From NCBI GenBank assembly GCA_964432825.1, contig CAYSOX010000002.1, positions 16,188 through 80,187 on the forward strand: 64,000 nucleotides of DNA. Reading direction: 5' to 3'. This stretch comes from an uncultured Lachnospiraceae bacterium. Its GTDB lineage: Bacteria; Bacillota; Clostridia; Christensenellales; UBA1242. The stretch's first letter is position 1. Every line of letters starts with the position of its first letter. The position numbers and the translations under genes are program-made. The notes under the pieces were generated by a model. It searched no databases. It saw nothing but the letters and a program-made list of their open reading frames with translations, and was not told the origin of the DNA. Positions 2,251-51,374 of this stretch are shown piece by piece.

Positions 2251-3651
2251 ATGAGCAAACAAAATACATTTGACACTTCTTCTGAGCCGGATTTTGTTAA
2301 TATTTGGGAAGAGGCAAAAAGTTATCTTCAATCAAAAATCACCGCTTTTGAATTTGATATGTGGATAAAAGGGCTAGAACCCTTAATGATTAAAGATAAT
2401 TGCTTAATTTTAGAATCAAAAACGCAAGGCAATAAAGCCGTTGTTATGAAAAAAGCGGATATTATTGAAGATGCACTTAAAAAAGTTTCTAGAGTTGTAA
2501 CCAAATTTAACATTTTTGTTGAGAACGAAGAAGAATATTTAGAATTAAAAAAAGAAAAAGAGGATGTCGATAAAGGATTTGACCTTCCAAAAAAAGCCCA
2601 AAAACGCACTTCTTTTGCATTTAATCCTAGATTCACCTTTGATAACTATGTTATAGGTCCATCCAATGAGTTTACTGTAGCAGCGGCGAAAGCGGTTGCA
2701 GCACGCCCTGGAACAAATTATAACCCCTTATTTATTTATGGCGGTGTAGGACTTGGAAAAACTCATCTTTTGCATGCAATTGGCAATGCAATTTGCGAGT
2801 TACATCCAGAATTAAATGTAGTTTATGTAACAATTGAAGAGTTTACAAACGAATTTATTGAAACGGTTAAACAAAATGAACTAAGTTTTAATATTGGTTT
2901 TAGAAACAAATATCGAACAGCCGATGTCTTAATTATTGATGATATTCAGTCAATTATTGGCAAAAATCGTGTTCAAGAGGAGTTTTTCCACACATTTAAT
3001 GCACTAAAAAGCCAAAATAAGCAAATTGTGTTAAGTTCGGATAGACCACCAAAAGAGTTTAAAACTTTACTTGAAGACCGAATAGTTAGCCGTTTTGAAG
3101 ATAGTCTTTTCACCGATATTGGAATACCTGAAATTGAAACTCGAATTGCAATTTTGAAGAAAAAGTGCTATATGGATAGACAAGTTGTTGACGATGACGC
3201 ATTATATTACATTGCTGAAGGAATGACTTCTAATGTCCGTGAACTTGAAGGCTTTTTATCTAGATGTGTATTCTATGCCGGGCTCCTTAAAAAGCCAAAA
3301 GTTACCTTAGAAATTGCAAAAGAAGCCTTAAAAAACTACATAACAGCAAAAAAAGTGACTTATGATAGCGATAAAATAATTGAAAAAGTGTGTTCGTACT
3401 TTGAAGTTAGTAAAAATCAACTTTTAGGCAAGGATCGTCGCAAAGAACTTTCTTATGCTAGGCAAATTGCAATGTACCTACTTGACGAATTGATGAATAT
3501 GCCGTATACTTCTATTGGTAAGATTTTCGGAAAAGACCATGCTACCGTAATTTACTGTAAAAATAAGGTAAGTTCTGAACTTGAAACCAATAAATTATTG
3601 GAAGTCCAAATTAAAGATTTGAAAGGTCTTTGCGGAGCCAATGTTGAATAG
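2251..3651 (+). CDS. dnaA: Chromosomal replication initiator DnaA
   Basis: Walker A GGVGLGKTHLLHAIG, the AAA+ core, and a C-terminal DNA-binding domain (ARQIAMYL..SIGKIFG.DHATV). I prefer the ATG at 2251 (AGG 5 nt upstream) to the GTG at 2245 in the ORF track. Confidence 0.97.
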   Translation: MSKQNTFDTSSEPDFVNIWEEAKSYLQSKITAFEFDMWIKGLEPLMIKDNCLILESKTQGNKAVVMKKADIIEDALKKVSRVVTKFNIFVENEEEYLELKKEKEDVDKGFDLPKKAQKRTSFAFNPRFTFDNYVIGPSNEFTVAAAKAVAARPGTNYNPLFIYGGVGLGKTHLLHAIGNAICELHPELNVVYVTIEEFTNEFIETVKQNELSFNIGFRNKYRTADVLIIDDIQSIIGKNRVQEEFFHTFNALKSQNKQIVLSSDRPPKEFKTLLEDRIVSRFEDSLFTDIGIPEIETRIAILKKKCYMDRQVVDDDALYYIAEGMTSNVRELEGFLSRCVFYAGLLKKPKVTLEIAKEALKNYITAKKVTYDSDKIIEKVCSYFEVSKNQLLGKDRRKELSYARQIAMYLLDELMNMPYTSIGKIFGKDHATVIYCKNKVSSELETNKLLEVQIKDLKGLCGANVE

Positions 3652-3664
3652 TAGTAAATTTAAC

Positions 3665-3778
3665 TTTTCAACAGGTTTTAAACAGGGTGTTAAAAACTTT
3701 TCAAAGTTTTCAACAAGTTTTTAGTCTCGTTTTTCCCTTTATTTTAAAGGATTTTAAACACTTTTCAACTTTTCAACA
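3665..3778. promoter_or_regulatory. Cluster of DnaA-box-like 9-mers TTTTCAACA in the dnaA-dnaN spacer
   Basis: TTTTCAACA occurs at 3665-3673, 3707-3715 and 3770-3778, and TTTTCAACT at 3762-3770. Degenerate copies are TTTTCAAAG (3697-3705) and an inverted TGTTAAAAA (3689-3697). The main copies share one orientation. Each differs from TTATCCACA at 2 positions. Confidence 0.5.
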
Positions 3779-3845
3779 CCCCCTACTACTACTATTACTA
3801 TCTAAAAAATAAAAATAAATAGTTATATATAAGGAGAAAAACCAC

Positions 3846-4949
3846 ATGAAACTTATTTGTGATGGGTTTGAACTTAGTGAAGCAGTAAACACTGTTTTAA
3901 AAGCTACTGCTATTAGGTCTACAAATCCAATTTTAGAAGGCATTAAACTTAAAGCCGAAAATGATGTTTTAACTTTACAAGCAACTGATTTGGAGTTAAG
4001 CATTGAAAAGCGTATTGTCGCTGATGTTAAAATAGAAGGTGAAGCCGTTGTTGCGGGTAGATTCTTTGCCGAACTTATCAAAAAACTTAATAATGAGAAA
4101 ATTGAAATTACAAAAAATCCAGATGAAAATAAAATTAAAATCAAATATACCGACTCTGAAGGATATCTTCAAAGTTTACCAGTAAGTGAATTTCCTGAAA
4201 TAAAGCAAATTGAAAGTGCTGATTCTATAAAAATCAAACAAAATGATTTTAGAGATTTGATTTCAAAAACCATTTTTAGTGCATCTTACGATGATGCAAG
4301 GCCTATTTTAAAGGGCGTTTTAATGGAAGTAACCGAAAATAAAATAACGGGAATTGCGCTAGATGGCTACAGAATGGCTGTTTGCTCAAAGCCAATACAA
4401 AGCACTTCTTCATTTACATATATTTGTCCAGCAAAAAGTTTGGCAGAAATAAGTAAAATTATTGGCGACGATGATGAAGAGTTAGAAATCTTCATTCAAA
4501 AGAACTACATTTTAATAAATGTAGATGAAACAAAGATTATTACAAGACTTCTTGATGGTGACTTTATTAATTATAAGCAAGTTATTCCAGTTTCTACTTC
4601 TACCATTGTGACGGTAGCAAAGAGATTTTTGGAAGAAGCGATAGAGCGCGCAAGTTTGCTTGCAAGATTAAATAAAAACAATCTTATAACTTTTGATATA
4701 AAAGAGAACTTGATGAGCGTTTCTAGTTCATCCGAACTTGGAAATATCACCGAAAAAATTTCTATTTCTGCAAAAGGAAAGGATTTGACTGTTGCATTTA
4801 ATGCAAGATATTTCAGCGAGAGTTTAAAAAGCATAAGTGACGAGTATGTAAATATTAACTTTACCTCTCCAATTGCACCTTGCACAATAACCGCTACCGA
4901 AAACAGTGAATATTTATATTTAATTTTACCAGTAAGAATTGTAAACTAA
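3846..4949 (+). CDS. dnaN: DNA polymerase III beta sliding clamp
   Basis: About 367 aa with three-domain clamp-like sequence (MKLICD..L..AV..V; LDGYRM; ..YLILPVRI at the C-terminus). RBS AAGGAG. Canonical position after dnaA. Confidence 0.97.
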   Translation: MKLICDGFELSEAVNTVLKATAIRSTNPILEGIKLKAENDVLTLQATDLELSIEKRIVADVKIEGEAVVAGRFFAELIKKLNNEKIEITKNPDENKIKIKYTDSEGYLQSLPVSEFPEIKQIESADSIKIKQNDFRDLISKTIFSASYDDARPILKGVLMEVTENKITGIALDGYRMAVCSKPIQSTSSFTYICPAKSLAEISKIIGDDDEELEIFIQKNYILINVDETKIITRLLDGDFINYKQVIPVSTSTIVTVAKRFLEEAIERASLLARLNKNNLITFDIKENLMSVSSSSELGNITEKISISAKGKDLTVAFNARYFSESLKSISDEYVNINFTSPIAPCTITATENSEYLYLILPVRIVN

Positions 4950-4966
4950 AAATTATTTAAATTTTA

Positions 4967-5020
4967 AAAACAGGTTTTAAGTTAGAAGGACACTTCAATT
5001 AAAAACCTGTTTTATTTTTG
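4967..5020 (+). terminator. Intrinsic terminator after dnaN
   Basis: A perfect 12-bp stem, AAAACAGGTTTT (4967-4978) paired with AAAACCTGTTTT (5002-5013), followed by a T-rich tail. The loop is rather large (23 nt). Confidence 0.55.
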
Positions 5021-5058
5021 TCTTAAAAAAAATATATTTTTAACAATTGTTTAACTGT

Positions 5059-5753
5059 TGTTGAAAACCAATTAAAAACTATTAAAAAAAATTTAAAAAT
5101 TAGAGTAATTTATAAATAACATCAATCTGAAATATTATTTCAAAACCTATGTAAGTTTAAAAAAACTAAAATAAAAATTCTAAACTATCAAATATAATAA
5201 TTTCAAACGGTGTTTTATGTGATAAGATGCTAGTTTGAAAATCTAAAACAAATAACTGGAAAAACGTTAAAAATAAATTCACTCCGCAAAAAGTTAAAAT
5301 AAAATTAAAAATTATTCAAAATATAATCAGTTTTTAAATAATCAAAAAATATTCTAAAAAATTAAAACTTAAATTTAAAATTTATATAACGATTGACTTG
5401 CATATTAAACCTAAAAAACAAAAAACTATTAAAAATGTGTAATAGATTTAATCTTTGAAGTTAAAAATTTTGACAATTGAACTAAAAAAAGACTAAAGGA
5501 GGTGTTTTGTATCTATAAAAAATAGTAAATTTTAGTTTATAAGACATTTTTCCAAAAAATAAAAGTCTAACTTTTATTAAACTCAAAAATAATAATCACA
5601 ATTTGTGCATATAAAATATATATAAATAATATTAAAAATTCTGTTACAAATCGTCTGAGAGGCTTGAAAAGTTGAAAAGTGGTAGGTTTTTAACTTTTTT
5701 AAAATCATTGTTGAAAAAGTGTTGAAAACTTCAAAAAAATTTATTTGTCAACA
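5059..5753. promoter_or_regulatory. Second, opposite-orientation cluster of the same 9-mer (TGTTGAAAA) downstream of dnaN
   Basis: TGTTGAAAA at 5059-5067, 5709-5717 and 5720-5728. AGTTGAAAA at 5670-5678 and CTTGAAAA just before it. An inverted TTGTCAACA at 5745-5753. Confidence 0.4.
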
Positions 5754-5972
5754 AAAATTTAAAAATTTTTTAAAAATTGGAAAAATTTGTATATTTTAAC
5801 AGAAAAAAAATTTGTGTTCAAAAAGTACTTTACAAAAATCGCGTTTGGGTGTAATTTATTATTACACTAAAATTTTAATGGGTTAATAGCAAGTCTTGAC
5901 TATTATAAATTTAGTGTGGCTTATTATACTAAAATAAAATGTTGTAACACAAAATAATAGAGGAGTAAAAAG

Positions 5973-6662
5973 ATGAGTAATCGCAGTTTAAGAAAAGATG
6001 AACGCTTGTTTGAACCGTCTGAAATTGTTTTATTAACAATTTTGGGGCTTTTGCTTGTGTTAAATATTTTGACTGCAATTATGAGTCAAGTCGCGGTGAA
6101 CTCGCATATAGGGAATCTATTTTCTGCCAATATGATAAAGAGTTTTGTATATTCAATCATTACGGCACTTTGCTTATACCTAGTTGGAACGCTAATAAAA
6201 AATCAAAAAATTAATCTTAAAGATTGGCTTGCAATTTCCTTTTATGCAGTTGTGTTTTTGCTAGTAAATGTGTACAACTTATTTGGGCTTTTTAATTACT
6301 TGATTTTGAATATATTTGCCGAACTTTTAATCGGTGTAAGTTTTGCAATTATAGGAGTTTCGGTATATTATAATTATTTAAAAAATGAGAACAATCGTGT
6401 AAAAGCGAAGGCAATTGTGGTTTGTATTTTTGCATTAACTTTTTCAATTGCGGGAGGCTTTTTGATTGAATTGTTAAAATATCTGGCTTCGCTAATTTTT
6501 GGAAATACCTTTTATTCATTTGGAAAAGTTGCATTAAATGTTTTGTATGCAACTGTTGGATCGCTAATAATAGATACCATCTTCTTCTTTTCGTTGAAGG
6601 GAAGCAAAAAATTAATCAATGCATGTTTAATAGATGTTGAAATGGGTGAATATGAGGACTAG
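5973..6662 (+). CDS. Hypothetical polytopic membrane protein
   Basis: RBS GAGGAG. 229 aa with about 6 hydrophobic segments. I recognise no family motif. Confidence 0.7.
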   Translation: MSNRSLRKDERLFEPSEIVLLTILGLLLVLNILTAIMSQVAVNSHIGNLFSANMIKSFVYSIITALCLYLVGTLIKNQKINLKDWLAISFYAVVFLLVNVYNLFGLFNYLILNIFAELLIGVSFAIIGVSVYYNYLKNENNRVKAKAIVVCIFALTFSIAGGFLIELLKYLASLIFGNTFYSFGKVALNVLYATVGSLIIDTIFFFSLKGSKKLINACLIDVEMGEYED

Positions 6663-7075
6663 AGAAAAGGCATTTATTAGAGAGTATGCTAATTAAAGTT
6701 TTTTGCGAACAGTTGGTTTTTAAAAAATAGTAATATTGCATTTTCAAAAAATAATTAAAGCCGTTGTTTTAAAAAAGATGCTAAAAGTTACTAAAAATTA
6801 AAAAAATTAAACTATTGAATTAAACTCGAAAAGTCGTTTAACTTTTTGAAATTATACCCCATTTTATTAAGATTATTTTTATGTAACAATCGATGCAAAT
6901 TTTTTATTTTTAAATAAAAAATAGAAATTTATAAAATGAGTTTTTAACAAAAAAGAAGTTTATTGTTAAAAACTATTGATTGCCAAAATTTAGTTTTTAA
7001 CATAATTTAAAAACTTATTAAAAACAAAATTTGAATATATTTGCAATAATTAATAAAACTAAAATTAAAAAAATT

Positions 7076-7102
7076 CTATCACGGCAGAGTGATAGTTTTT
7101 TT
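7076..7102. terminator. Intrinsic terminator, possibly bidirectional
   Basis: Stem CTATCAC (7076-7082) pairs with GTGATAG (7089-7095), loop GGCAGA, then T7. An A-run lies upstream. Confidence 0.6.
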
Positions 7103-9649
7103 ATTTGCAAAAAATTTTTTACTAATTTTTTAATTAAACAATGCAAAAACAATATCAAAATTTTATTGGAAAAAATTTTTATAAGTTTAAATTTTTAGTT
7201 TTTTTAAACCTAAAAGTAAAGTTAAAACAAAAAAAAATATTTTAAGAAAGAGGTGATTTTTTATAAAAACAACTTTATATAAACCCAGCAAAAAACATAT
7301 TTATAAAGGTCAAAAAAAGTCAAAAATATCTAGTGTTATCCAAAAACAATTTTAGTTAATTATATATTTATTTAATAATTTTATAAATTGATTTTTAACA
7401 AGTTAATATATATATTGTTAAAAAATAATTAAACAAAAAGTTATTATTGTATTAATAATCGCTTCTGGCAACTAGTCTGTTGTGATTAAAATTTAAAAAC
7501 AGAAATTTAAACAAATTGTGGTGGTTGGTTTTTTTAAAGTGGAAAAAAAGTCTTAAAACTGATGTTGAGATAAATTGCAATGTAATGTGTTTTGATATGA
7601 TAAGACAAATTTAATCCCCTAATTATACATAGACTGGATATTATCGTTTGAAGTGGAGAAAAAAACCTAAAAACCAATGTTAATACAAATTGTGATAATA
7701 GAGATTATTGTAGGTTAAGTTAATTAGTTTTTAAAAAGACAAACAAATAAACTTTTTGCATAACGAAAATAATATTCAAGGCAGAAAGAGTGCGAATCTG
7801 TTGGGTGGTGTGTTTTAAAAGTGAAAAGCGATACTAATTGCGATATTTAATAATCGGTCTGTGGTGGTAGTGAATAGTAGCAAAGTTAGTTAAACTTTAA
7901 CACTGTGTAGGATATAAACCTCAAAGTGAGAGAATTGTTGCAAATGTTTATATATTCAAAAATTGAAGGATAATACACGGTGTGATAACTTGTGACCACT
8001 AGCGTGGAGTGAATGCGATTATAACCAATAAACTTTAAAACAACGATTTATATATTGCTTGTTCGCGGAAGGTGAACTGAAGGCATTTTTTTATTTTTAG
8101 CGATTTTAGTAACTTAAACTATGAAGATAAGATTTTTATTTTGTAGTGGTGACGGCACTAAATTTAAAGAAATGTAAAAGAATTGCTTTGTGGATGTGTG
8201 AATAAATAATCAACATTGTTAAAAACTACTTTATTAAAACTATTTTTTTAAGAGAATATTATAAAATAAAAACAAAATGGCGATTGGAAAAATATTAAAC
8301 TGTTCCGCAAAAAAGATTAATTTTAAAGTTGGATAATATTTATAAGTTTAAAAAATATGATTAAGTTTTTGTTTGGTGATAAATTAATTTTTAAGTGGAA
8401 ATAAGTGGATTATATGCCCACTAAAGGGTTAAAAATTTAAACAAAGTAATTTATGCTTTAGTGTTTAAACTGTCAAATTTGGACGGAATAAGGCATTAAA
8501 AACTACCCTATTATAAAATATTTAAAAAAATTAATTTTGCGGTCTTTGCCTTTATTTTTAAGAAGTTTAGTGGGGTTAAAATTTGCAGGCTGTGACACAA
8601 AATCGTGCAAAGCAAAAATTTATAACTTATAATAAAAGTAAGCTTAAAAGAAGGAGGAGAAGGCTATAAAACAAAAAAAACATAAAACCAATCAAAAAAC
8701 TTATAACAGATTACTTGAGGTTGTAAGAATTCAGCCCGAAGGGATAAAACACTACAGCAGATGGTTTTACATATAGTAAAAACAAAATTTTTAATTTTAT
8801 AGGTGCAAAAACAATAAATTTTGAGGATAACAAAAATTTATTTTGCTAGTACATGTTATGTGATTAAAAGCATAAAGAAATTAAACTTCTGGTTGAAACA
8901 TGGATTCCCTACAAGTTGCCCCAAAGGGTCAAAATATGAAAAATTTTACATTTGTTTGATGTTACACAATTCTGCCCCTGCGTAATAAGGCAAACGCTTT
9001 ATTTTTATATTAAGAAAGTAAAATTTTCGCGTTGTTTAAAATTTGGTGTTATTGAACCGAAGAGTTAAATTTTGACAGTTAGTGTATGATCCTTAACGCT
9101 ATGAATTTACTACTGAATATGTTTAATTTTCCCGCTTATGATAATATGTGGTTATGTGGCATAGAAGTTTAAATAAAATAAACTTTTAGTTGTGGCTTAG
9201 GTTTTTACAAGTTGTGCTAAGTTGTTGCGGAAACTATTGCCATTAACCACTTTAAAAGGTGTAATTGCGTCACTAAAAGCTATCTTATGCCAATATATCA
9301 AAATTAAGGAGAACGAATGAAAAAGAATAAAAAAATCAAAATTTATAACGACAGCTAAATTGATGTTGTGAGTGTATTATATAGCACTAAAAAAAGACTT
9401 AAATAAAGCATAAAGTTGCAAAGAATAAAATAAAATTTACAACGACAATTGAATTATTAATGCGGTTAATTTTAGAAATATGAAATAAAGATTGTAGACA
9501 AGGCTTTAATGCTTGTACAAATTTAAAAATTCAAACATTAAAAAACAAAATGTTGGATAAAACATGGGGTACATTTACAAGATTGGACAATGTTAATAAA
9601 TTAACCAGTTATTAATTTACAAATCAATTTTTATTTGAAATAAAACCAA

Positions 9650-9960
9650 AAATGCGGTTTTAACAAATTTTATTTTAACTGTTAGAAATTAAAGGTTTTA
9701 GGGATAGACATAAATAACTAACACAGAAATATAAAGAAAACAAGTGTAAATCCTCTAAAAACTAAACAACTTTATTAGCTTCACTTAAATATATATTACG
9801 AAGCCGTTTTTATCTGAAGAAAACAAAAAATTTTTAACAGTTTTTTAGTAGACTGAAATTAAAGGTTTTATAAAAAAACAAAAAAAACAAACGCAGAAAT
9901 AGAAGGCGAAATCAATCATAAATTCACCGAAATAAAAAGTAAAAACAGCCACAAAATCTA
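9650..9960. repeat. Diverged tandem duplication of about 170 bp
   Basis: The exact 16-mer GAAATTAAAGGTTTTA occurs at 9685-9700 and 9855-9870. AC(A/G)CAGAAATA occurs at 9721 and 9891, the same 170-nt offset. Flanking TTTTAAC(T/A)GTT strings are also shared. Confidence 0.75.
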
Positions 9961-10229
9961 GAGTTTTTTGTGGGATAACCAAAGAGTTATGGAGAGATAA
10001 AAGTTTCAAAAAGGGGCAAATTTGGGGCTGATTTTAAACCTGCCATAAACTCACAAAAAGCAAAAGCACAAAAAAGTGCAGTCAATTTGGAGTTAAAAAT
10101 AAAAATTAGTTTTTTGGAATTAAAAGCATAAAAATTGCTTAATCGCCTAAAGTAAAAAAAATAAAATAACACCTTTTAAGAAAACAAAACCCCAAAATAA
10201 TGAAACCCTTAAAAATTATAAATTAACAA

Positions 10230-10268
10230 AAAAAATAAAAAGTCTAAACAACTTGCGTTTAGACTTTT
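10230..10268 (-). terminator. Intrinsic terminator downstream of jag
   Basis: A perfect 12-bp stem, AAAAGTCTAAAC (10238-10249) with GTTTAGACTTTT (10257-10268), and a 7-nt loop. The A-run on the + strand gives a T-run on the minus strand. Confidence 0.6.
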
Positions 10269-10322
10269 AAATACTTTTAAAAAATTGTTTTGCGCTAAAA
10301 ATTAATTACTTATTTGTAAAAA

Positions 10323-10967
10323 CTAGTCGTTAAAATCGCGGTTGTAGCGTTCATCCATATTGCTTGGGATAATTGTGATATATCTATGAGGTTCGGCATC
10401 ACGGCTAATGGTTTTTACATCTTGACGAGATTCTAGTGCTAAGTGAATGATTTTTCTTTCATACGCGTTCATAGGTTCTAATTTGCTTGGTTTTCGTTCT
10501 TTTACCGACTTGTCTGCCAAGCGATGTGCTAAAACCTTTAATGTTCCCTCTCTTTTTTCGCGGTAGCCCGAGCAATCAAGACGAACTCTTTTGTATTGGT
10601 TGTGAGGTTTATGCTTGTTTATTATTTGATTTAAAAGATGTTCGGTAGCGTCTAATGTGTCGCCCCTCTTTCCGATAACACTTCCTACATCATTTCCGGC
10701 GAAATCGACCAAAATAACATCGTCTTCTTCTTTTACCGTCGCTACGATATCTAGTCCCATCTTTTGAACGAACTCTTGAACTTTAATTTCTACTTCGGTC
10801 ATTTCGGCAAGGTCGCTTTTTAACACAAGCCTTACCTTTGCTTTATCAAAAAGCCCGCCTTCAGAAAGCACTGCCACTTGCACATCTTCCTTTTTTGCAT
10901 TAAGTTTAAATAGCCCTATTTCTATTGCTTGGTCAACATTCTTTGCTGATACTTCAATTGAATTCAT
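10323..10967 (-). CDS. jag: Jag/KhpB RNA-binding protein (Jag_N, KH and R3H domains)
   Basis: C-terminal R3H-like sequence LEPMNAYERKIIHLAL. Located downstream of yidC. Start moved to MNSIEV, which has the RBS GGAGAAAA. Confidence 0.85.
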   Translation of the reverse strand: MNSIEVSAKNVDQAIEIGLFKLNAKKEDVQVAVLSEGGLFDKAKVRLVLKSDLAEMTEVEIKVQEFVQKMGLDIVATVKEEDDVILVDFAGNDVGSVIGKRGDTLDATEHLLNQIINKHKPHNQYKRVRLDCSGYREKREGTLKVLAHRLADKSVKERKPSKLEPMNAYERKIIHLALESRQDVKTISRDAEPHRYITIIPSNMDERYNRDFND

Positions 10968-11083
10968 AATATTTTCTCCTACATTTTTTGTTCTTTTGCC
11001 CATAAATTGTTGTTAAAGTTGTTTTTATACAATAAATTTAAAAATACAAAAATTTTTATAAAAATTGAATTATGGGTAATTTT

Positions 11084-12214
11084 TTAAAACTTTTTCATAA
11101 GTCCTCGATAGGTGGTCATTTGAGGTTTTGCATTCTTTTGCCTTTTTAGTTCGTGTAAAGCCTCTTTTTCAAGATAGGCTAAATACTTCGCTTCTTCCTT
11201 TTTGGTCATCTTTTCTGCAATTAGTCCTAGTAAGTAGTTTGTGATTAAACTCATTATTGAACTTGTTAGTAGATATAATCCGAAAGCCGCAGGGTTGGTT
11301 AAGGCAAAAATTATTGAAATAATAGGCAAAATTAACTTCATAATTTTCATGGTGCTGTTCATTTGCTGTTCGGTTTGAGAAGGCGTTACATTGATTTGTT
11401 TTGCCTTTTTAGACTTGTTTGAAAGGTCGGCAATAATTTGAGATGCAAAACTCAATAAGCCTGAAAGAAGTGCTATGATAAAATATCCATTCCAACCGGT
11501 GTGTTTATCAATAACTGGTGCCATAACCAAATTATATCGGTCGGGATTTATATAATTTTCGCTAGTTTCTACAAAATATGTATTGTAATATTTTTTGTCG
11601 TTTGCAGATTTGGTTGCAGACATTAATGAATCATAATCGGGAACACTTTTTACACTTGAATCATTCTTCCAAATGTTTTTAACCCATAACCAGTGGTTAT
11701 TTTTTGTGATTTCATCGTATTTTTCGTTTAATATTACATTAATTTCTTCATTTGAAAGATTTTTTGCTTCGCAATCGGCATAAGTATCATTTAAAATTGT
11801 GTATTGCTCAACCATTTTATATGCACTTATGTTTCGAAGAGTGTTGAAAAATGATATAAAAACAAAAAGTGTTAATACAATGTTTAATAATGAAAATAAA
11901 CAAGTTCCGACCATATTATAGCCTTCTCGCTTATATAATGCTTGTACTTCACGATTTGCACGCTCTCTATTGTTTGCAAATTTGGTATTAATTTTTTGGA
12001 TTTGTCCAGTAAGGCGTTTTTGAATAAAATTGTTTTTTCTTGAAGAATATCGGTTGTATAAGTCTAGCGGAACCATTATAAGTTTTACAAATATTGTAAA
12101 CAAAATGATTGACCAGCCATAATTTACAACAAAACCTTCAATAGCCTTGTATATAGAAGCCCAAAGCCCAGTTGGGGCTGAAACTTCCGCTAAAAAGTTT
12201 GTTATATTAGCCAT
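11084..12214 (-). CDS. yidC: Membrane protein insertase YidC/SpoIIIJ (Oxa1 family)
   Basis: Multi-pass membrane protein containing KLIMVPL..YNRYSSRK and MKIMKLILPI, in the conserved rnpA-yidD-yidC-jag context. Confidence 0.9.
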   Translation of the reverse strand: MANITNFLAEVSAPTGLWASIYKAIEGFVVNYGWSIILFTIFVKLIMVPLDLYNRYSSRKNNFIQKRLTGQIQKINTKFANNRERANREVQALYKREGYNMVGTCLFSLLNIVLTLFVFISFFNTLRNISAYKMVEQYTILNDTYADCEAKNLSNEEINVILNEKYDEITKNNHWLWVKNIWKNDSSVKSVPDYDSLMSATKSANDKKYYNTYFVETSENYINPDRYNLVMAPVIDKHTGWNGYFIIALLSGLLSFASQIIADLSNKSKKAKQINVTPSQTEQQMNSTMKIMKLILPIISIIFALTNPAAFGLYLLTSSIMSLITNYLLGLIAEKMTKKEEAKYLAYLEKEALHELKRQKNAKPQMTTYRGLMKKF

Positions 12215-16532: not shown

Positions 16533-17774
16533 ATGGTTAAATTTGACTTAAAGCCAACAGATATTTTTAAATTTATTAAAGAGGGCGAAGAAAAATTTAT
16601 AAAAAAGGTTGGAAAACAACCTCGCACTACACCAAGGAAACGCCACAAACAAGGTTATTATTACAAAAGAAAGGTGCACAATAAAACAAAAGCGGGTCAA
16701 AAACTTGCCGAACAACGAAAAAACTTTATTGCCCGTGAAATTCCAAAGTGTGAGTTGAATATTTTTCGCAACAAAAACCTACTTGAAAGAAATAAAAAAG
16801 AATTTGAAAAAGAAAAATTATATTATGATATTAAGCGTCAGGCGATTTGCAAAGAGTGGTACCGATTAAAAAATAATATTAAAATTTTAAATGAAGAACG
16901 ATGCCGATTACAAGAAAATTATTCGGATATACAAGCCTTGCAAAAGTCAATTAATGAAGATACAAAACGAATAGAAAAACAAAAAAAGCAGATTGAAAAA
17001 TGGGACTCTTCACTAAAAGAAAAGACTTTTAACAATGCAAAAGCGGTTTTGGAATTGATTAAGCGGTGTGATAATGAGTATGTAAAGACCGAAAGACTTG
17101 CATGGTTAGATGATATTAGAAGTGTGGGAAAAGAAGATAGTCAGGTATTTTTAGCAGAAGAAGAAAAACGCGTGTCGGGTGAATCGAAACGCGGAAAATA
17201 CAAAAAAGTGAGTTATGATGATTGCTTGCTGTTTGAATTGGATGAAAATGGAGAAATCCCCGATTACGGAATTAAAAGGCCATTTAAAATCAATAATAGA
17301 CGGGTTGCGAAAATATTTGATAAGGACGGAAATGTTCTTATAAATCCAACGCAAGCATTAAAATTGGGACTTACTATGCCACGAAGATTTTTCAATTTGG
17401 ATAGCGAATTTTTAACAATTTTAGTGGAGAATCAAAAGACAAAGTCTGCCAACGAAAGTTTTAAAATTGCTTTGCCATACATTAGAGAACGCGTTGAGAA
17501 ACTGGCAGACGAAGAGTTGATGTGCTATGCAAGTTACAATATTAGAAAGGCAAATTATTATGCAAATATAGTGGATAATTCGGCTTCAATTTGGATTGGG
17601 GATAAATGGGTTCGGCTAGTGTCTCAAAATGTAAAGTTTGAAAGACGGGCAAGACAAATGTTGACAGCCATTGCATGCAGGTTGATAAACGAACGAAAGG
17701 TCGACAAAAAGAAGGGTGAACTGTATTTTGAATATGTAAATATGCTAGATGATAATAAAAAAACCGAAGAATAA
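16533..17774 (+). CDS. Hypothetical basic, K/E-rich coiled-coil protein
   Basis: Starts 8 nt after the mnmG stop. The N-terminus is very basic (QPRTTPRKRHKQGYYYKRKVHNKTK). It occupies the position where rsmG usually follows mnmG. I recognise no family. Confidence 0.6.
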   Translation: MVKFDLKPTDIFKFIKEGEEKFIKKVGKQPRTTPRKRHKQGYYYKRKVHNKTKAGQKLAEQRKNFIAREIPKCELNIFRNKNLLERNKKEFEKEKLYYDIKRQAICKEWYRLKNNIKILNEERCRLQENYSDIQALQKSINEDTKRIEKQKKQIEKWDSSLKEKTFNNAKAVLELIKRCDNEYVKTERLAWLDDIRSVGKEDSQVFLAEEEKRVSGESKRGKYKKVSYDDCLLFELDENGEIPDYGIKRPFKINNRRVAKIFDKDGNVLINPTQALKLGLTMPRRFFNLDSEFLTILVENQKTKSANESFKIALPYIRERVEKLADEELMCYASYNIRKANYYANIVDNSASIWIGDKWVRLVSQNVKFERRARQMLTAIACRLINERKVDKKKGELYFEYVNMLDDNKKTEE

Positions 17775-21135: not shown

Positions 21136-21909
21136 TTAATCTATATAAGGATTTTCAAAGGTTTCATTTGTTTTATAATTTCTAAGGGCTCGTGCAAGAG
21201 TGTCTGGAACAAATAAATTTGAAAAATATTCGTCATAATTTTTGTAACTTTTTATACTAACCTCGGTTGTGTTTTTAAGTGAATAAACCTTTGTGTAATC
21301 TTTTGAAAATTTTTCGATTGCTTGACCGTGAATTGTGCGGAAAATTTCCATTTCGCAAGCCGATGTTAGGCTATCACCAATAATCTTTTTTAATGTTTCA
21401 ATTGAAATATTCCCGTTTTCTGCCAAAAGTCGGATGCTTTCATTTTGTAAATCTTTAATTGTTGGGTGGCACCTTGAAGCATTTTCTAAAATTAAAGCAC
21501 TTGGAGTGGTGCTATTGGAGTTAAGTGAATTATTCAACGAAAAGTCTTCAATAAATGCACCGCGTAAATGATAGTTTGTGTCTTTTAGTAGGTCGGCTAA
21601 ATCTTCAGCGGACGCAATGTGTGAGTCTGGGAAAACACTCAAAAGTTCGAAAAAGGTATTTTTTAAATTTTTATATTCGGGGTTGGTTTTAATAAGTCGT
21701 TGCAAAATAAAGGCTTTTTCGTCTGAAGTTTTTGAGATTGCCAAACAAGAACTGAAAACATCTAGTTGAAATTCTCGAGACTTGTTGTGTAACAACGAAA
21801 AAATTTTGCCAAAAGTTAAAAGTCGAAGGGTTGCTGGTTTTTCGTTTGGTAGGCTAGATTTTGTAAGATTATATATTGAATTGAAAAGGTCAAATGTTGA
21901 ACACTTCAT
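21136..21909 (-). CDS. Hypothetical protein B2 (paralog of 21909..22799)
   Basis: Shares the block AISKTSDEKAFILQRLIKTN with B1 (EISENAKEKAFILQQYLKN). Its ATG overlaps the B1 stop (TAATG). Confidence 0.6.
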   Translation of the reverse strand: MKCSTFDLFNSIYNLTKSSLPNEKPATLRLLTFGKIFSLLHNKSREFQLDVFSSCLAISKTSDEKAFILQRLIKTNPEYKNLKNTFFELLSVFPDSHIASAEDLADLLKDTNYHLRGAFIEDFSLNNSLNSNSTTPSALILENASRCHPTIKDLQNESIRLLAENGNISIETLKKIIGDSLTSACEMEIFRTIHGQAIEKFSKDYTKVYSLKNTTEVSIKSYKNYDEYFSNLFVPDTLARALRNYKTNETFENPYID

Positions 21910-22799
21910 TATTGTTTATCTCCTTCATTTTTTGATGAATTGGTTGCTTGTTGTTCAATTTCCGTCATCATACCAATGCAACAAGGTACAATACAAGTTT
22001 GAGTAAAAAAGTCGTCAAAACTGTCATAAGGTGTAATTTTAATTGCTTCGGATACCTGATGATTCATTCTAACTTTTGGTGGATATGTTTCTTGGATTGT
22101 TGAAGTTATAACTTCTTTAATATACGGAGCATCGGTTGGGGTGATTGCAGAAGACAAATAAGGTAAAAAATGATTATGCAATTTTGTCTGGTAAAGTTCT
22201 TTATTTGTTTTTAATAGTTTATAGGAATTATGCTCATAAACTTTACTCCACTCTGGGCGTCTTCGGTCATGATAATTAGATGAGTACACTGCCCCGCCTA
22301 TGCCATGAATTTTCACAAAGTGTAAACTTTTAGCGCTTACACCATCGGTTAATATTGTGTCATCGGTTAAGCAGTTTTGTTTAAAATCTTCTTCATAAGT
22401 AGAAGAAAGTCTTTTGGTTAGTCTAGCGTTTTTAAGATATTGTTGTAAAATAAATGCTTTTTCCTTAGCATTTTCAGAAATCTCCAAAAGTGCCGAATAA
22501 AATGCAAATTCTTGGTCATATAAAAAACTTTCGTGTTCAGACTCTTCACCCGGAATGTATAATACATCAAATTTAGATTGAAAATTATTTATTAATATTT
22601 TAAATGCCACCAATCTTGAGTTGTTTTTAGCATTCTCAATTTCGGCGCGACGATTTGCGAGGTTTGTACGGTTTAAGCGGTTGTGTTTATCGGTAAGAGT
22701 GCTATATTTTGCCATAATTTTATCTAGTGAAGATTGAAAATATGCGTCGGCAAGTTCATTTATTTTTATTACATACTTTTCTTTCATAGATTGTTTCAT
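21909..22799 (-). CDS. Hypothetical protein B1
   Basis: I start it at MKQSMKEK (ATG at 22799), 5 nt after the stop of the upstream gene and preceded by AAAGGAG. The longer 387-aa track ORF would overlap that gene by about 270 nt. Confidence 0.6.
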   Translation of the reverse strand: MKQSMKEKYVIKINELADAYFQSSLDKIMAKYSTLTDKHNRLNRTNLANRRAEIENAKNNSRLVAFKILINNFQSKFDVLYIPGEESEHESFLYDQEFAFYSALLEISENAKEKAFILQQYLKNARLTKRLSSTYEEDFKQNCLTDDTILTDGVSAKSLHFVKIHGIGGAVYSSNYHDRRRPEWSKVYEHNSYKLLKTNKELYQTKLHNHFLPYLSSAITPTDAPYIKEVITSTIQETYPPKVRMNHQVSEAIKITPYDSFDDFFTQTCIVPCCIGMMTEIEQQATNSSKNEGDKQ

Positions 22800-22803
22800 A
22801 TTT

Positions 22804-23445
22804 TTACTCCTTTTCGTCGGGGGTATAATTATAAAGGTCGGAATATAAAGTTTCCATGTTGGCTCTTTCGTTTGAGGTAAATGAAGTATTTGTTCGTCTT
22901 TTAGGGTCTTTTGGTTGATGGTTTCTAGAATAACCGGACTTTGTTCGTTTAAACCCGCCCATCTTTTTACCGCGACTAAATGCTTCTGTTTGTGCTTCGG
23001 TGGCTCTTGCGCGTTTTTTAGTGTTTGCAAGATAGATTCGTTCTTGTTTAAATCGGTTTGCATATTTTGCATGGTTTACTGTGATGGTTGTTACAAGTTG
23101 CGACTTTATTGAAGAAAGTCTAACATTTTCTTGCGGGTTATCTTGCTCTTCAAAATCTAAGTTTCGTGCATAATGTACACAGGATGTTAGTCGCTCAAGT
23201 GTTTTCACAATTTGTTTGTGATTGCCATCTTTTTTGCGTTGGTGATTATCTGTTGCATTTGTAAAGCATCGCCCAGCTTCATTTCTTGATTCGCAATAAA
23301 AAATATTGCAAAGTGTCTTGTAAAAATTTTCAACGATATCAATAAAATCATCATCGCGAGAAAGAATATTTTCTAAAACCATAATTAAATTGTCGTATTC
23401 TTCGGCGGTTATTTCAGAACCTGCCTTTATTTGTTTGTCTTCCAT
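22804..23445 (-). CDS. Hypothetical HTH-like basic protein A2 (paralog of 23451..24074)
   Basis: VRLSSIKSQLVTTITVNHAKYANRFKQ aligns with IRLSTTKNKLATMFCVSRAKFYSRFKE of A1 and looks like a helix-turn-helix. Both also share N-terminal EYDxL and C-terminal SxNERxN blocks. Confidence 0.6.
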   Translation of the reverse strand: MEDKQIKAGSEITAEEYDNLIMVLENILSRDDDFIDIVENFYKTLCNIFYCESRNEAGRCFTNATDNHQRKKDGNHKQIVKTLERLTSCVHYARNLDFEEQDNPQENVRLSSIKSQLVTTITVNHAKYANRFKQERIYLANTKKRARATEAQTEAFSRGKKMGGFKRTKSGYSRNHQPKDPKRRTNTSFTSNERANMETLYSDLYNYTPDEKE

Positions 23446-26766: not shown

Positions 26767-27819
26767 TTATCTATGTAAAATGTTATAAATTCGGTCTAAG
26801 TCGTCTTTTGAAAAATATTCTATAATAATTTTCCCTTTGCGGTCGGTTCCTTGAATGGTTGCTTTGGTTGAGAAAATGCGTTGCAATTGTGCGGAAAAAT
26901 CTTGCAATTCCAAACTTTGAACATAGGTTGCTTTACGCTTGCGGGCTTCGGTTAAGTTGGACATATTTTGGATGTATTTTTCCAACTCTCTAACACTAGC
27001 CTTGCTTTGCACAGCCATTAAAGCCGTTTTTAATTGAAGTTCGCGGTCCTCTATTCCGACTAAAATTTTTCCGTGACCAGCAGACAACTCGCCACGCTCG
27101 ATCATTTTAACAATTTCAGGGCGAAGTGCCAAAAGTCTTAGGGTGTTTGTGACTGCCGTTCGGCTTTTTCCGATTTTTTCGGCAATTTCTTCTTGGGTTA
27201 GGTTAAACCTTTCCACAAGTTCACGAATTGCGAAAGCCGATTCAATTGGGTTTAAATCTTCTCTTTGAAGGTTTTCAATTAAAGATATTTCGGCAATTTC
27301 TTGTTCGGTGTAACGCTTTATGATTGCAGGAATGGTTTTAAGCCCTGCAAGTTTGCTAGCCCTAAAACGCCTTTCACCCGAAACTATCATATAGCGGTCG
27401 CCATTTTTAACCAAAATGATTGGTTGAATAACTCCGTGTGCTTTAATGCTTTGAGCAAGTTCGTTTAGTGCACCTTCATTAAAATTTTTACGCGGTTGAC
27501 TTAAATTTCGGTCAATTAAAGCAAGAGGAATTTCGCGTGGGGTTGGGTCGCCGGTTGGAACTTCAACGATTTTCTCGACAATCTTTTCAACGGGTTTTTC
27601 AACGATTTTCTCGACGATTTTTTCAACTGGCTTCTCGACGATTTTCTCGACGATTTTTTCTACCGGTTTTTCAACAATCTTTTCAACAACCTTGGTTTCA
27701 ACAATCTTTTCAGGTTCGTTTTTGTCGTTTGTTTTCTTTTTTGGGGTAAGTGTTAAGTCTTCCGGCTCATCGTCAAGCCCTCCAAAAAGTGAATCTAAAC
27801 CTCTTCCGAGTCTTGCCAT
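26767..27819 (-). CDS. parB: Chromosome partitioning protein ParB/Spo0J
   Basis: N-terminal LGRGLDSLFG, the ParB box SQPRKNF..GVIQPIIL..GERRFRA, and an HTH (EIAEKIGKSRTAVTNTLRLL). Confidence 0.93.
   Translation of the reverse strand: MARLGRGLDSLFGGLDDEPEDLTLTPKKKTNDKNEPEKIVETKVVEKIVEKPVEKIVEKIVEKPVEKIVEKIVEKPVEKIVEKIVEVPTGDPTPREIPLALIDRNLSQPRKNFNEGALNELAQSIKAHGVIQPIILVKNGDRYMIVSGERRFRASKLAGLKTIPAIIKRYTEQEIAEISLIENLQREDLNPIESAFAIRELVERFNLTQEEIAEKIGKSRTAVTNTLRLLALRPEIVKMIERGELSAGHGKILVGIEDRELQLKTALMAVQSKASVRELEKYIQNMSNLTEARKRKATYVQSLELQDFSAQLQRIFSTKATIQGTDRKGKIIIEYFSKDDLDRIYNILHR
27558..27715 (-). repeat. In-frame tandem repeat (12/36-nt period) encoding (VEKI/VEKP)n in the ParB N-terminal linker
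   Basis: The protein reads VVEKIVEKPVEKIVEKIVEKPVEKIVEKIVEKPVEKIVEKIVEV. In the DNA, GATTTTCTCGAC and GATTTTTTCAAC units repeat. Confidence 0.85.
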
Positions 27820-27825: not shown

Positions 27826-28623
27826 CTAGCCCTCCTTTTTTCCTGATTTTTTATATTTTATCCCATTTTTTGCTAGGATTTCTTCGGCTAAACACATATA
27901 ACTTTTTGCGCCAACGCAAGATTTATCGTATAAACAAATTGGTAGCCCGTGGCTTGGTGCTTCTGCTAAACGGATGTTACGCGGTATGGTTGTTTCATAA
28001 ACACTGTTTGTAAAGTGTTTTTTAATTTCAGCGGCAACTTGTTGACCTAAACTAGATCGCTTGTCTTTCATTGTTAGTAAAACGCCTTCAATTTGAATAT
28101 TTGGGTTAAGTTTTTTCTTGATTAATCTTATTGTGTTCATAAGTTGGCTTAATCCTTCTAGTGCAAAAAATTCACATTGGATTGGTATTAATACCGAATC
28201 GGCACTAGTTAAAGCATTAATAGTCAAAAGCCCTAATGATGGCGGACAGTCAATTGTTATAAAATCATAACTATCACGAACCTTATCTAAAAGCCTTTTA
28301 ATGATTTTTTCACGAGATTCCATATAAACCATTTCAACTTCAGCGCCGGCGAGTTCGTTGTTGGCGGGCAAAATATCAAATCCTTCAACGGGGGTATGCT
28401 GAATAACTTCATCTATACTAGCCTCCCCAACTATTAAATCATAAACCGATTTCATTTCGGTGTTTTTTCTAACCCCAACACCACTGCTGGCATTTCCTTG
28501 AGGGTCAATATCTATAAGCAAAACCTTTTTGCCAAGGTTTGCAAGTGACGCGGAAGTGTTTACGCAACTGGTTGTTTTTCCTACGCCACCCTTTTGATTT
28601 GCAAATGCGATTATTTTTCCCAT
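27826..28623 (-). CDS. parA: Chromosome partitioning ATPase ParA/Soj
   Basis: Deviant Walker A, NQKGGVGKTT. 265 aa. Directly upstream of parB. Confidence 0.95.
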   Translation of the reverse strand: MGKIIAFANQKGGVGKTTSCVNTSASLANLGKKVLLIDIDPQGNASSGVGVRKNTEMKSVYDLIVGEASIDEVIQHTPVEGFDILPANNELAGAEVEMVYMESREKIIKRLLDKVRDSYDFITIDCPPSLGLLTINALTSADSVLIPIQCEFFALEGLSQLMNTIRLIKKKLNPNIQIEGVLLTMKDKRSSLGQQVAAEIKKHFTNSVYETTIPRNIRLAEAPSHGLPICLYDKSCVGAKSYMCLAEEILAKNGIKYKKSGKKEG

Positions 28624-31867: not shown

Positions 31868-32132
31868 AATTGTTCACCCTTTATTAATTTTAGGGTTCGA
31901 TTATATCATACCAATTTAAAAATTTCAAGATGTATAACCAAATTTACATCCAAACAATGTTTAAAATTGAAAAAAATAAACAAAAAAAATATTGCTGTTT
32001 AATCAACAACCTGCCAACTTTTCGCAAAATATACTAATTTCAAAACAGCCTCAAAATTGCCCCTTTTTGGCAGTTTAATGTTTTTATGAATAAACTATCG
32101 ACGACTACCTAAAAAGTGGCGAAATTTTATTC

Positions 32133-32150
32133 TTCGAACATATGTTCGAA
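32133..32150. promoter_or_regulatory. Perfect 18-bp palindrome TTCGAACATATGTTCGAA (candidate protein-binding site)
   Basis: Read directly from the sequence. It lies in the ORF-free stretch about 190 bp before the first parS site. Confidence 0.4.
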
Positions 32151-32340
32151 AAGTAAAAGGGCTTGCAGTTGGTCTTTTCTGTTTCAAAACCCGTTGTGTT
32201 TTAGGTGATGTTTGGTGTTTGGCTTATATAATTCGAAGCGATTTTACGAATGGTTTTATAGATTTTGCGACCTGCCTTTTTAAGTTTTTGATGCCATTAT
32301 TTAATCCGTGAAGTGCCGAAAATTTTGGATGAAATAAAAA

Positions 32341-32356
32341 TGTTTCACGTGAAACA
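32341..32356. promoter_or_regulatory. parS: parS site, perfect 16-mer TGTTTCACGTGAAACA
   Basis: Exact match to the palindromic parS consensus bound by chromosomal ParB/Spo0J. Confidence 0.9.
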
Positions 32357-32383
32357 TTTTGTTCTGAGACGACAACTTACTTG

Positions 32384-32399
32384 TGTTTCACGCGAAACA
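32384..32399. promoter_or_regulatory. parS: parS site with 1 mismatch (TGTTTCACGCGAAACA)
   Basis: 15 of 16 positions match the consensus. It lies 43 bp from the first site. Confidence 0.8.
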
Positions 32400-32672
32400 A
32401 TTTGGCGGGTTCTTGTAGGTATGTGACAATTAAAAGGCTTAAAAGTATCAGGTTGGATATTGCTTTAATGTTTATGTTGGGTTCGTTTACCCATGGCCGA
32501 AAGAGGGCTTATTTATTAGTTACCTTTCATATGGAGTTTTTATTTAATTAAAATTATCCCATATCCCCTACCTTTGGTTGTTTCGTTACAGAATGGCTTA
32601 CTGGGGCATTTTCGCTAATTTAAATTAAACCCAAAGGGCTTTAAGATGCATTTAGTATTGTATTTAAGTAAA

Positions 32673-32688
32673 TGTTTCACGTGAAACA
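32673..32688. promoter_or_regulatory. parS: parS site, perfect 16-mer
   Basis: TGTTTCACGTGAAACA with the palindrome extended by flanking AA..TT. A left half-site (TGTTTCACG) follows at 32716. Confidence 0.9.
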
Positions 32689-32995
32689 TTTTGCATATTT
32701 GTTGGTAAATAAAGGTGTTTCACGATTGGATTTACCTTTTAAAATAAGCGATTTGCTGTGCGAGTAAGCGGTTTAGTGTAAATGTTTACATTGTATATAT
32801 AGATAATGTTATTGATTTATTTGTAGCAAGATATTTATTATTGTAAGACTTATAACCATTAGAGGAATTGGTTAATATGTAGCAAATTGTTAAAAAGTAT
32901 TTTAATAAGCCAACAAAAAAAGTTATTAAGCAATATTAGATTTTGCAAATTAGGTGAATTGTGAAACAATAGCAAATAAGTTAAGCAAAAGCCAA

Positions 32996-33011
32996 TGTTT
33001 CACGTGAAACA
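32996..33011. promoter_or_regulatory. parS: parS site, perfect 16-mer
   Basis: TGTTTCACGTGAAACA. A right half-site, GTGAAACA, lies at 32961-32968. Confidence 0.9.
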
Positions 33012-33273
33012 TTGGCTTTTGATGTGTAAAGTAGTTTAAATGAATAAATGTATAAATTGATAAATAAATAACAGCAAGCAATTTTCAGTTTAAAAACCAT
33101 CTTGTTAAAAAGCATATTTAAAAAATATGTGGCATATATTGTATTCGAAATAAAATGCGACAAATTAAACAAAAATGTTATGATAAAACCATAAATACAA
33201 AAAACAAAGAATGTGGCTTATAAAATTATGCCCAAAAGTGAAACATCTAACCAATAAAAGAATTTAGTAAAAA

Positions 33274-33289
33274 TGTTTCACGTGAAAAA
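33274..33289. promoter_or_regulatory. parS: parS site with 1 mismatch (TGTTTCACGTGAAAAA)
   Basis: 15 of 16 positions match. A right half-site, GTGAAACA, lies at 33238-33245. Confidence 0.75.
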
Positions 33290-33540
33290 CTAGTTTATTT
33301 AAAATTTAAAAACTGAAAAAGCGAAGTGTGAGATGTGCCCAAAATTGAAGCAAACAAAAAGCAATTTAAACAATAAAATCTTAAACAAAAAATTTAAAAA
33401 GTATTAAATTATTAAAAAATGCAATGAAGTGCCAGATATCAAAAAGTTGAATTTTAACAATTAAATATTGATTGCCAAATAAATAGTTTTTAACAAAAGT
33501 TGAACATTTGTTAAAAGCCAAAAATTATAATATTCCAAAA

Positions 33541-33556
33541 TGTTTCCCGTGAAAAA
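33541..33556. promoter_or_regulatory. parS: Degenerate parS-like site with 2 mismatches (TGTTTCCCGTGAAAAA)
   Basis: 14 of 16 positions match. It is the last member of the cluster. Confidence 0.55.
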
Positions 33557-51366: not shown

Positions 51367-51374
51367 TTTAATAT

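Follow-up and report, generated by a model that had tools for sequence, protein, structure and literature searches.

In the 64-kb window of Clostridia DNA analyzed here (the term denotes the whole stretch examined), a gap of 3.66 kb at 6663-10322 lies between a gene for a 229-aa membrane protein and the jag/khpB gene. We consider it about an even chance that this gap is a spacer conserved in position and unconserved in sequence, in which three short islands are under selection and about three short non-coding units occupy the + strand. The spacer would have arisen at a gene-order breakpoint beside the origin region in one clade of small, AT-rich gut Clostridia of low coding density, and the bulk of its 3.66 kb would hold no conserved information, being neutral in composition, devoid of coding trace, and prone to fold like shuffled sequence. 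The parts that appear selected are a CtsR-type operator (7308-7324), a sigma-A-like promoter with a purine-rich leader (8587-8665), and a GGGGC repeat (10004-10035). Together with terminators at 7076-7102, 8056-8092, and 10238-10268, these islands would split the gap into about three + strand units, running from ~7330 to 8092, from ~8643 to 9000-9200 or further, and from ~10090 to 10268. The motifs may act as operator and promoters; the first unit may be repressed by CtsR and would hence be induced by heat or proteotoxic stress; and the transcripts could be lineage-specific, fast-evolving non-coding RNAs (ncRNAs) or by-products of transcription. The gap is in this respect a further instance of a known thing, a long, fast-evolving intergenic spacer with few regulatory islands. 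The initial annotation of this locus, made from the letters of the window, is partly confirmed: its observations were largely right, and its more attractive interpretations are unsupported.

The left neighbor of the gap, the 229-aa gene (5973-6662, +), belongs to no Pfam family and has dnaA and dnaN upstream of it; the right neighbor, jag/khpB, occupies 10323-11003 on the - strand. Four independent Logan assemblies reproduce the gap at 98.9-100% identity, and it is therefore not an assembly artefact. The order 229-aa gene, gap, jag is found in three species, with gaps of 3660 nt in the window, 2374 and 2356 nt in L012 and L014 (229-aa protein 69% identical to that of the window), and 2810-3193 nt in L008, L009, L010, and L013 (Jag 75% and 229-aa protein 66% identical). 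A fourth species, represented by the partial contig L016 (229-aa protein 85% identical), has the left end of the gap in common with the window. Homologs of Jag form a graded series, the 229-aa protein is limited to 12 clusters in the whole protein database, and the GTDB representatives of the clade are metagenome-assembled genomes of uncultured Clostridia from Hadza and Nepali gut samples. In the outgroups L017 and L018 (47% identical), a 227-aa gene is followed directly by genes for polysaccharide deacetylase and single-stranded DNA-binding protein, which in the window stand ~8 kb further on. The gap is also absent from L011 (Jag 66%) and L005 (Jag 93%), where unrelated genes come next after jag. 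Since the gap is missing where the gene order differs, it sits at a junction that was made when the jag-rpmH / mnmE-mnmG block next to dnaA-dnaN was rearranged. The neighborhood of jag is a hotspot of rearrangement and insertion.

Conservation within the gap was assessed by G/C-weighted local alignment against L009, L012, and L016, with the best score of 15 shuffles as the cut-off. Three segments alone exceeded it (33.5-49.5 against a shuffle maximum of 29.5), at 7305-7329 (7290-7355 against L016), 8592-8612, and 10007-10035, and the conserved islands measure 17-50 nt. L016 can be aligned to the gap over only ~166 nt around the first motif, while the neighboring gene is 78% identical at the nucleotide level. 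As a positive control, a non-coding block ~1 kb from the gap (5605-5877) is ~78% identical in four species and contains long invariant strings, so the lack of conservation in the gap is not a limit of the method. A lack of conservation in relatives had been named beforehand as evidence against a functional element, and almost no conservation was found beyond the three short islands. Two strings of 12-14 nt that by eye seemed shared between the core and the gaps of L009 and L012, AGTGAATAGTAG and AAGTGAGAGAATT, did not rise above shuffle scores and were dropped.

Variation among strains places the same islands in relief. The gaps of sister-species strains differ by 4-16% and carry block indels of 120-160 nt, against 0-3% in their flanks, and all three motifs are invariant among these strains although the sequence flanking the motifs differs. 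Within the window species, 37 of the 49 variable sites among five near-identical assemblies fall in 6700-7330. This AT-rich spacer and another at 1754-2244 diverge by ~3% between assemblies, compared with 0-0.4% in the flanking genes, and both are local variation hotspots or recombination imports. The absence of any substitution in 7712-9070 was rejected as a sign of constraint, the flanking genes being equally invariant (0-0.4%).

The first island contains two heptads in direct repeat and conforms to the CtsR operator consensus, A/GGTCAAA NAN A/GGTCAAA (PMC12634643). It is the sole exact match to RGTCAAANNNRGTCAAA in 64 kb, where ~0.004 exact matches would be expected by chance, a figure that we estimated from base composition and did not compute with a tool. 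The operator is kept at the orthologous place in L008, L009, L010, L013, and L016, and with two mismatches in L012 and L014, in each case between flanks that are saturated with changes. Strain variants at 7299, 7302, 7304, and 7328 surround it and none lies inside. The only promoter candidate at the operator is a weak minus-strand pair, TTGACT-18-TATGTT, and a search for a clp or chaperone gene under its control found no downstream ORF (open reading frame) on either strand and no Pfam relic. This orphan CtsR-type operator is the gap's one point of experimental worth. In the gaps of three sister-species contigs we also observed tandem repeats of 10 nt (or 20 nt) that amount to 7-9 heptads of the form GGGCAAA, TGTCAAA, or GGGCGAA, set at the 10-nt spacing of CtsR operators (L009 12218-12294; L012 ~11488-11583; L014 ~5138-5214). 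A TATAAT box and a purine-rich leader come immediately after these arrays, and the promoter there is a second copy of the promoter type found at the second island.

That second island, which we call P2, is identical at 21/21 nt in L008-L010 and L013 and at 18/21 in L012 and L014. Each of these contigs has GTGCAA, then 17 nt, then a -10 hexamer, which reads TATAAT, TAGAAT, or TACAAT. The corresponding blocks of L012 and L009 are 80% identical over 171 nt, and in L009 and L010 the P2 motif stands directly upstream of a copy of a covarying structured repeat that is described below. No match to the P2 motif was found in a scan of viral contigs; a parallel scan with GTCCGTAATTTCATT gave 90 matches, a count that fits chance for a 15-mer, and was disregarded. 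The third island, the GGGGC motif, is identical at 27/29 nt in the gaps of L008-L010 and L013. Its consensus, TTGnCAAAAAgggGCAAATTTGGGGCTrATTT, recurs at 32065 (-) in the window, ~200 nt upstream of an orphan 270-aa ORF, and at L012 4079 (-) and L017 1834 (-). In the latter two it is located between recF and gyrB, ~55 nt upstream of an extended -10 box before gyrB, and its presence upstream of gyrB in relatives marks it as a general regulatory motif.

The proposed units are bounded by terminators (Table 1). The two hairpin terminators that had been reported in the gap are both present, at 7076-7095 and 10238-10268, and both are bidirectional; hairpins equivalent to the first follow the orthologous gene in L009, L012, and L016. 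The further statement that ~3.1 kb between them held no other terminator was wrong, as a strong + strand terminator lies at 8056-8092. Its hairpin appears in both the minimum free energy (MFE) and centroid folds. A terminator scan returned five sites against 1.1 expected, to which a relaxed scan added the one at 8056-8092. The gap had also been credited with several families of degenerate repeats. One pair is significant, the others being AT-rich low-complexity matches, and no array of regularly spaced, near-identical repeats, whether of clustered regularly interspaced short palindromic repeats (CRISPR) or of another kind, was found in the gap.

Table 1. Sequence features located in the gap between the 229-aa gene and jag (window positions)
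Feature	Positions	Strand	Basis and remarks
AT-rich 3' flank of the 229-aa gene	6663-7075		composition (~16% GC); most strain-variable part of the gap
Bidirectional intrinsic terminator	7076-7102		7-bp stem, T-runs on either side; ends the transcript of the 229-aa gene
CtsR-type operator, GGTCAAA-AAA-AGTCAAA (GGTCAAAAAAAGTCAAA)	7308-7324	+	heptad direct repeat
TA-rich degenerate tandem repeat	7354-7421		23-nt unit; comparable TATATA tract after the operator in every species
G-rich body, candidate unit A	7450-8055	+	no ORF; GC equal to GC3; no cross-species alignment; strain-invariant like the flanking genes
Intrinsic terminator, TGCTTGTTCGCGGAAGGTGAACTGAAGGCA then TTTTTTT	8056-8092	+	relaxed scan; 11-bp stem with one bulge, dG -10.1, T7
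Promoter-like island P2, AAAAAGTGACACAAAATCGTGCAAAG, 17 nt, TATAAT	8587-8636	+	cross-species conservation
Purine-rich leader, AAAAGTAAGCTTAAAAGAAGGAGGAGAAGG	8637-8665	+	homologous to AAAAGAAGTTAAAAGAAAAAGA in L009, L010, and L012
13-aa ORF, MKKNKKIKIYNDS	9317-9358	+	starts with ATG; no other gap ORF of 10 aa or more combines a Shine-Dalgarno sequence with a start codon
Internal direct repeat	9617-9904	+	9617-9734 against 9796-9904, 72% over 118 nt; sole significant pair
Weak terminator-like hairpin, CCACAAAA...TTTTGTGG	9949-9973	-	T-rich tail on the minus strand
GGGGC direct-repeat motif, TTTCAAAAAGGGGCAAATTTGGGGCTGATTT	10004-10035	+	cross-species conservation
Bidirectional intrinsic terminator	10238-10268		12-13-bp stem; ends jag and any + strand gap transcript

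Several observations weigh against this interpretation of the gap. The middle base of the operator spacer (the A of NAN) is T in the sister species; no convincing -35/-10 pair consistent across species was found on either strand beside the CtsR-type box; and the ORFs of the 64-kb window include neither ctsR nor any clp gene. Collinearity between species is lacking for the GGGGC motif, which could be the relic of a translocated gyrB-type promoter. We infer transcription of the gap from its motifs alone. Furthermore, a bacterium would not be expected to retain 2-4 kb of unconstrained DNA at the same locus in several species, which leaves room for a function unseen by our tests.

Base composition had contributed to the initial case for an unusual element. 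The contrast behind the reported "GC-richer core" is real, with 25-33% GC in ~7450-9300 against 14-18% in 6700-7450. The core is not distinctive, however, as its GC of 29.3% and 29.7% equals the GC content at third codon positions (GC3) of 21 genes, 30.1%, and other spacers of the window span 22-33%. The GC3 level is the neutral composition, and the core matches it; the compositional outliers are three origin-proximal spacers with 16-19% GC (853-2244, 4950-5972, and 6663-7449). The reported purine skew is likewise real (GC skew +0.18 and AT skew +0.13 over the gap) and is not a special feature, other spacers reaching +0.29 to +0.52. By segment, GC skew ranges from +0.02 to +0.35 in the gap and from +0.09 to +0.52 in the other intergenic spacers. 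Between positions ~2000 and 64000 of the window, the + strand has a GC skew that is mostly +0.1 to +0.3, and strongly negative skew is confined to the first 2 kb; the origin therefore lies upstream of or around dnaA, with the remainder of the window as leading strand. The purine skew of the gap is leading-strand background. With a core at the GC3 level and a leading-strand skew, neither feature remains an argument for a special RNA. The gap is, as had been claimed, the largest ORF-free gap of the window. The accompanying remark that genes elsewhere are 0-10 nt apart was unrepresentative: ~27% of the window is taken up by gaps that extend over 250 nt or more and contain no ORF of 90 aa or longer, among them gaps of 1.7, 1.4, and 1.0 kb.

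These properties would also be expected if the gap were wholly non-functional debris of old rearrangements, lost genes, or mobile elements, kept by drift under weak deletion pressure, with motifs that are relics or chance survivors and with no useful transcript. We regard this alternative as rather unlikely. It gains from the neutral composition and the lack of conservation and structure, from the high turnover with block indels in sister species and the location at a synteny breakpoint, from the low coding density and many orphan ORFs of the window, and from the copies of a dispersed repeat that partly fill the sister-species gaps. Three motifs that are perfect or nearly so in three to four species amid saturated sequence, and invariant among strains, are nevertheless hard to explain without selection. 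The strong mid-gap terminator at 8056-8092 suggests transcription, and no protein relic of any kind is present. A remnant of a mobile element, prophage, or plasmid in particular was rejected: the gap had no blastn counterpart among 50,697 phage and 72,556 plasmid records, no Pfam relic was found, and the structured repeat of the clade is absent.

The selected islands could alternatively serve an RNA, and a very large ncRNA was among the options first raised. Across the whole window, Rfam 15 at the gathering score identified only one tRNA, at 29284, with a family set that included OLE, GOLLD, ROOL, raiA, HEARO, rRNA, tmRNA, RNase P, SRP, 6S, and riboswitches; on 4900-10400 at E<=10 there were only four sub-threshold chance matches, and ARAGORN found no tRNA or tmRNA in the gap. 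The stated lack of 16S/23S rRNA, tmRNA, RNase P, and SRP signatures is thereby borne out, and the covariance search that had been proposed for GOLLD, ROOL, OLE, raiA, and similar RNAs identified no family in the gap. Folding of 150-nt sliding windows against dinucleotide shuffles gave a mean z of -0.44 (+) and -0.41 (-), with z below -3 limited to the terminators, an AT palindrome at ~6850-6950, and one minus-strand window at 9800. The whole-unit folds also resemble shuffles (7440-8095, z -0.32; 8643-9205, z +0.56).

Against this background, a functional long ncRNA or set of ncRNAs that is too fast-evolving, or too purine-rich and unstructured, for such tests (for example, a protein sponge for KhpB/Jag) appears improbable. 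The promoter-like islands and terminators do bound units of 0.2-0.75 kb, the gap persists in several species, strains of the window species show no differences in its core (though the flanking genes are just as uniform), and the orthologous P2 of L009 and L010 is directly upstream of a covarying structured element. These points are opposed by the lack of an Rfam family, a fold z near 0, a composition equal to neutral GC3, a body that cannot be aligned even with the closest relative, L016, and the absence of that structured element from the window gap at E<=1. The very large ncRNA first envisaged, with neither an Rfam match nor excess folding and with almost no conservation in sister species, is not supported; an array of small RNA genes is possible in the weak form of three islands and three terminators, whose bodies are unconserved and unstructured. 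A related and equally doubtful proposal is that the gap is an origin-proximal, stress-controlled locus of fast-evolving ncRNAs, in which a CtsR-type repressor, a kind so far known from the control of protease and chaperone genes, would govern protein-less units. Their presence rather than sequence would be kept across this clade of reduced gut Clostridia, for instance to modulate KhpB/Jag or transcription of the origin region under stress.

The structured element just mentioned is a dispersed repeat of ~150 nt, observed in the window at 63612-63778 (+) and 51524-51685 (-), with partial copies at 63549-63616 and 51368-51439, as well as in the gaps of L008-L010 and L013 and at L016 3758-3848. 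Several copies in both orientations occupy the jag-proximal third of the sister-species gaps; in the window gap, an nhmmer profile (E<=1) found none. The repeat folds into a 5' hairpin and a long three-segment hairpin with 94.5% of cells paired. Compensatory changes are present in 30 of its 49 pairs, compared with 12.1 +/- 2.4 in shuffles (0 of 500 reach 30) and 5-7 in slid controls, and a few G-U pairs favor the given strand. The family has no Rfam match and is a candidate for a new structured RNA or an element resembling a miniature inverted-repeat transposable element (MITE). Its clear covariation indicates that real structure is easy to detect in this clade.

It is very unlikely that the gap acts at the DNA level as a replication or chromosome element near oriC, such as a DnaA-titrating cluster, a centromere-like array, an insulator, or curved DNA. 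Its distance of 0.7-4.4 kb from an oriC-like block, the extreme AT-richness of its left part, the form of its conserved motifs (direct repeats of the protein-bound kind), and the presence of a parS array in another gene-free gap of the genome all agree with such a role. The expected sites are nevertheless missing. In 6663-10322 there is no parS (TGTTNCACGTGAAACA) with up to 3 mismatches; the three one-mismatch matches to the canonical DnaA box TTATCCACA in the gap represent the background rate, with none in the gaps of L008-L010 and L013; the clade box TTTTCAACA does not occur in the gap; and Fourier analysis of A-tracts, G, and GT in the gap gave no periodicity above shuffles. With no repeated site beyond the single motifs, and with bulk sequence and length both unconserved, the earlier suggestion of a chromosome-organization element finds no support.

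That the gap contains no credible ORF had been concluded by eye and is borne out, the longest standard ORF on either strand being 62 aa. Reading TGA or TAG as sense opened no long frame in the gap, and an alternative code with TAA as sense was rejected because it yields merely many short ORFs, as expected in AT-rich DNA. Period-3 signal-to-noise does not exceed 1.9 across the gap, against mostly 2-10 in neighboring genes. A Pfam scan of its six-frame translation gave 0 matches at E<=1, and all 40 stop-free gap fragments of at least 30 aa, searched as a concatenation against 5.8 billion proteins, likewise gave none. The tblastx comparison with relatives that had been recommended for finding gene remnants returned nothing from either gap-bearing or gap-less genomes. 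By blastn and tblastx against the other 60 kb of the window, the gap matched only AT-rich patches and the GGGGC motif, and the idea of a silent cassette was rejected. The corresponding gap of L016, the closest relative, contains an undisrupted ORF of 177 aa (3066-3599, -) that is rich in Cys, Lys, and Ser and has KSCSAKATK repeats, a good ribosome-binding site, and a terminator; tblastn of this ORF against the window gap found nothing. The 13-aa ORF of the window gap is probably a chance occurrence or a leader peptide. Recently decayed genes or unannotated small-protein genes, to which the L016 ORF and the good Shine-Dalgarno sequence of the 13-aa ORF lend some color, are thus hardly credible, as Pfam, the protein database, tblastx, tblastn, and period-3 analysis revealed no relic of the heavily decayed genes once suggested and no further ORF of at least 10 aa has a Shine-Dalgarno sequence and start codon.

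Beyond the gap, several features of the window and its relatives deserve record. The 9-mer TTTTCAACA has 11 copies in the window against 3.9 expected. Six of these boxes flank dnaN in opposite orientations (3665, 3707, and 3770 on the + strand; 5059, 5709, and 5720 on the - strand) and form clusters at 3665-3778, in the dnaA-dnaN spacer, and at 5059-5728. Two lie inside the conserved block 5605-5877, downstream of dnaN and upstream of the 229-aa gene, which is probably part of a bipartite oriC with a clade-specific DnaA-box variant. A second gene-free gap of 1.7 kb (32003-33728) contains six sites resembling parS, TGTTTCACGTGAAACA, against 0.66 expected by chance. They are located at 32341, 32384, 32673, 32996, 33274, and 33541, mostly ~300 nt apart, in an array that spans 32341-33556, 4-5 kb from parB (26767-27819) and parA (27826-28623); these sites resemble a centromere-like parS array. 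The segment 1288-1989 has a gene-like period-3 signal-to-noise of 2.8-4.0 and may be a recently disrupted gene; it lies in the 1.4-kb spacer that precedes dnaA, where the longest ORF is 53 aa, and tblastn searches with RecF and GyrB of the sister species found nothing. No Pfam family matches many of the window's ORFs of 100-600 aa, such as those at 16533-17774, 21136-23072, and 41767-43578. In L005, an AAA_21/RloB pair (3708-5647) resembling an abortive-infection defence module lies upstream of rnpA, and a 786-aa LRR_5 protein is encoded after jag (9123-11483).

If the gap is indeed a position-conserved spacer with few selected islands, its significance is mostly one of caution: neutral leading-strand DNA in this lineage looks like a "GC-rich, purine-skewed core", and such a multi-kb gene-free stretch in this AT-rich lineage of low coding density should be kept off any list of candidate giant RNAs. 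What is gained on the positive side is small: an orphan CtsR-type operator and a conserved promoter, neither of them followed by a gene. Should these motifs be active, the CtsR regulon of uncultured gut Clostridia would take in non-coding transcripts. Rearrangements and repeat insertions are also concentrated at the gap, beside the origin, which is of use for strain typing and for studies of genome reduction in the clade. As leads for further work, the covarying ~150-nt repeat and the six-site parS array are more promising than the gap.

Among known systems, the gap resembles OLE, GOLLD, ROOL, raiA, and HEARO in being long, gene-free, bracketed by terminators, and situated in a Firmicute. Unlike these RNAs it has no covariance match (E<=10), no conserved sequence, and no excess folding energy; they are recognizable across phyla, whereas the gap cannot be aligned between species whose neighboring genes are 70-80% identical at the nucleotide level. 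With origin-proximal elements such as DnaA-box clusters and parS arrays it has in common a non-coding nature and a place near dnaA-dnaN, and it differs from them in lacking repeated boxes of either kind. Its heptad repeat fits the consensus of the Bacillus subtilis CtsR operators, which belong to class III heat-shock genes (clpP, clpE, and the clpC operon), and its host belongs, like those of CtsR systems, to the Firmicutes, here the Clostridia. The heptad arrays of the sister species, with their 10-nt period before a P2-type promoter, recall the multi-site clpE promoter. The gap operator departs from CtsR systems in having no clp, chaperone, or any other gene downstream on either strand, and the sister-species arrays in using GGGCAAA and TGTCAAA in place of GGTCAAA. 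Non-coding deserts under relaxed selection occur in pseudogene-rich or reductive genomes, for example Mycobacterium leprae and recent symbionts. The window shares with them a coding density of ~72%, a spacer of neutral composition, fast indel turnover, and many orphan ORFs; unlike those deserts, the gap is free of recognizable pseudogene remnants, persists at one locus, and keeps three motifs.

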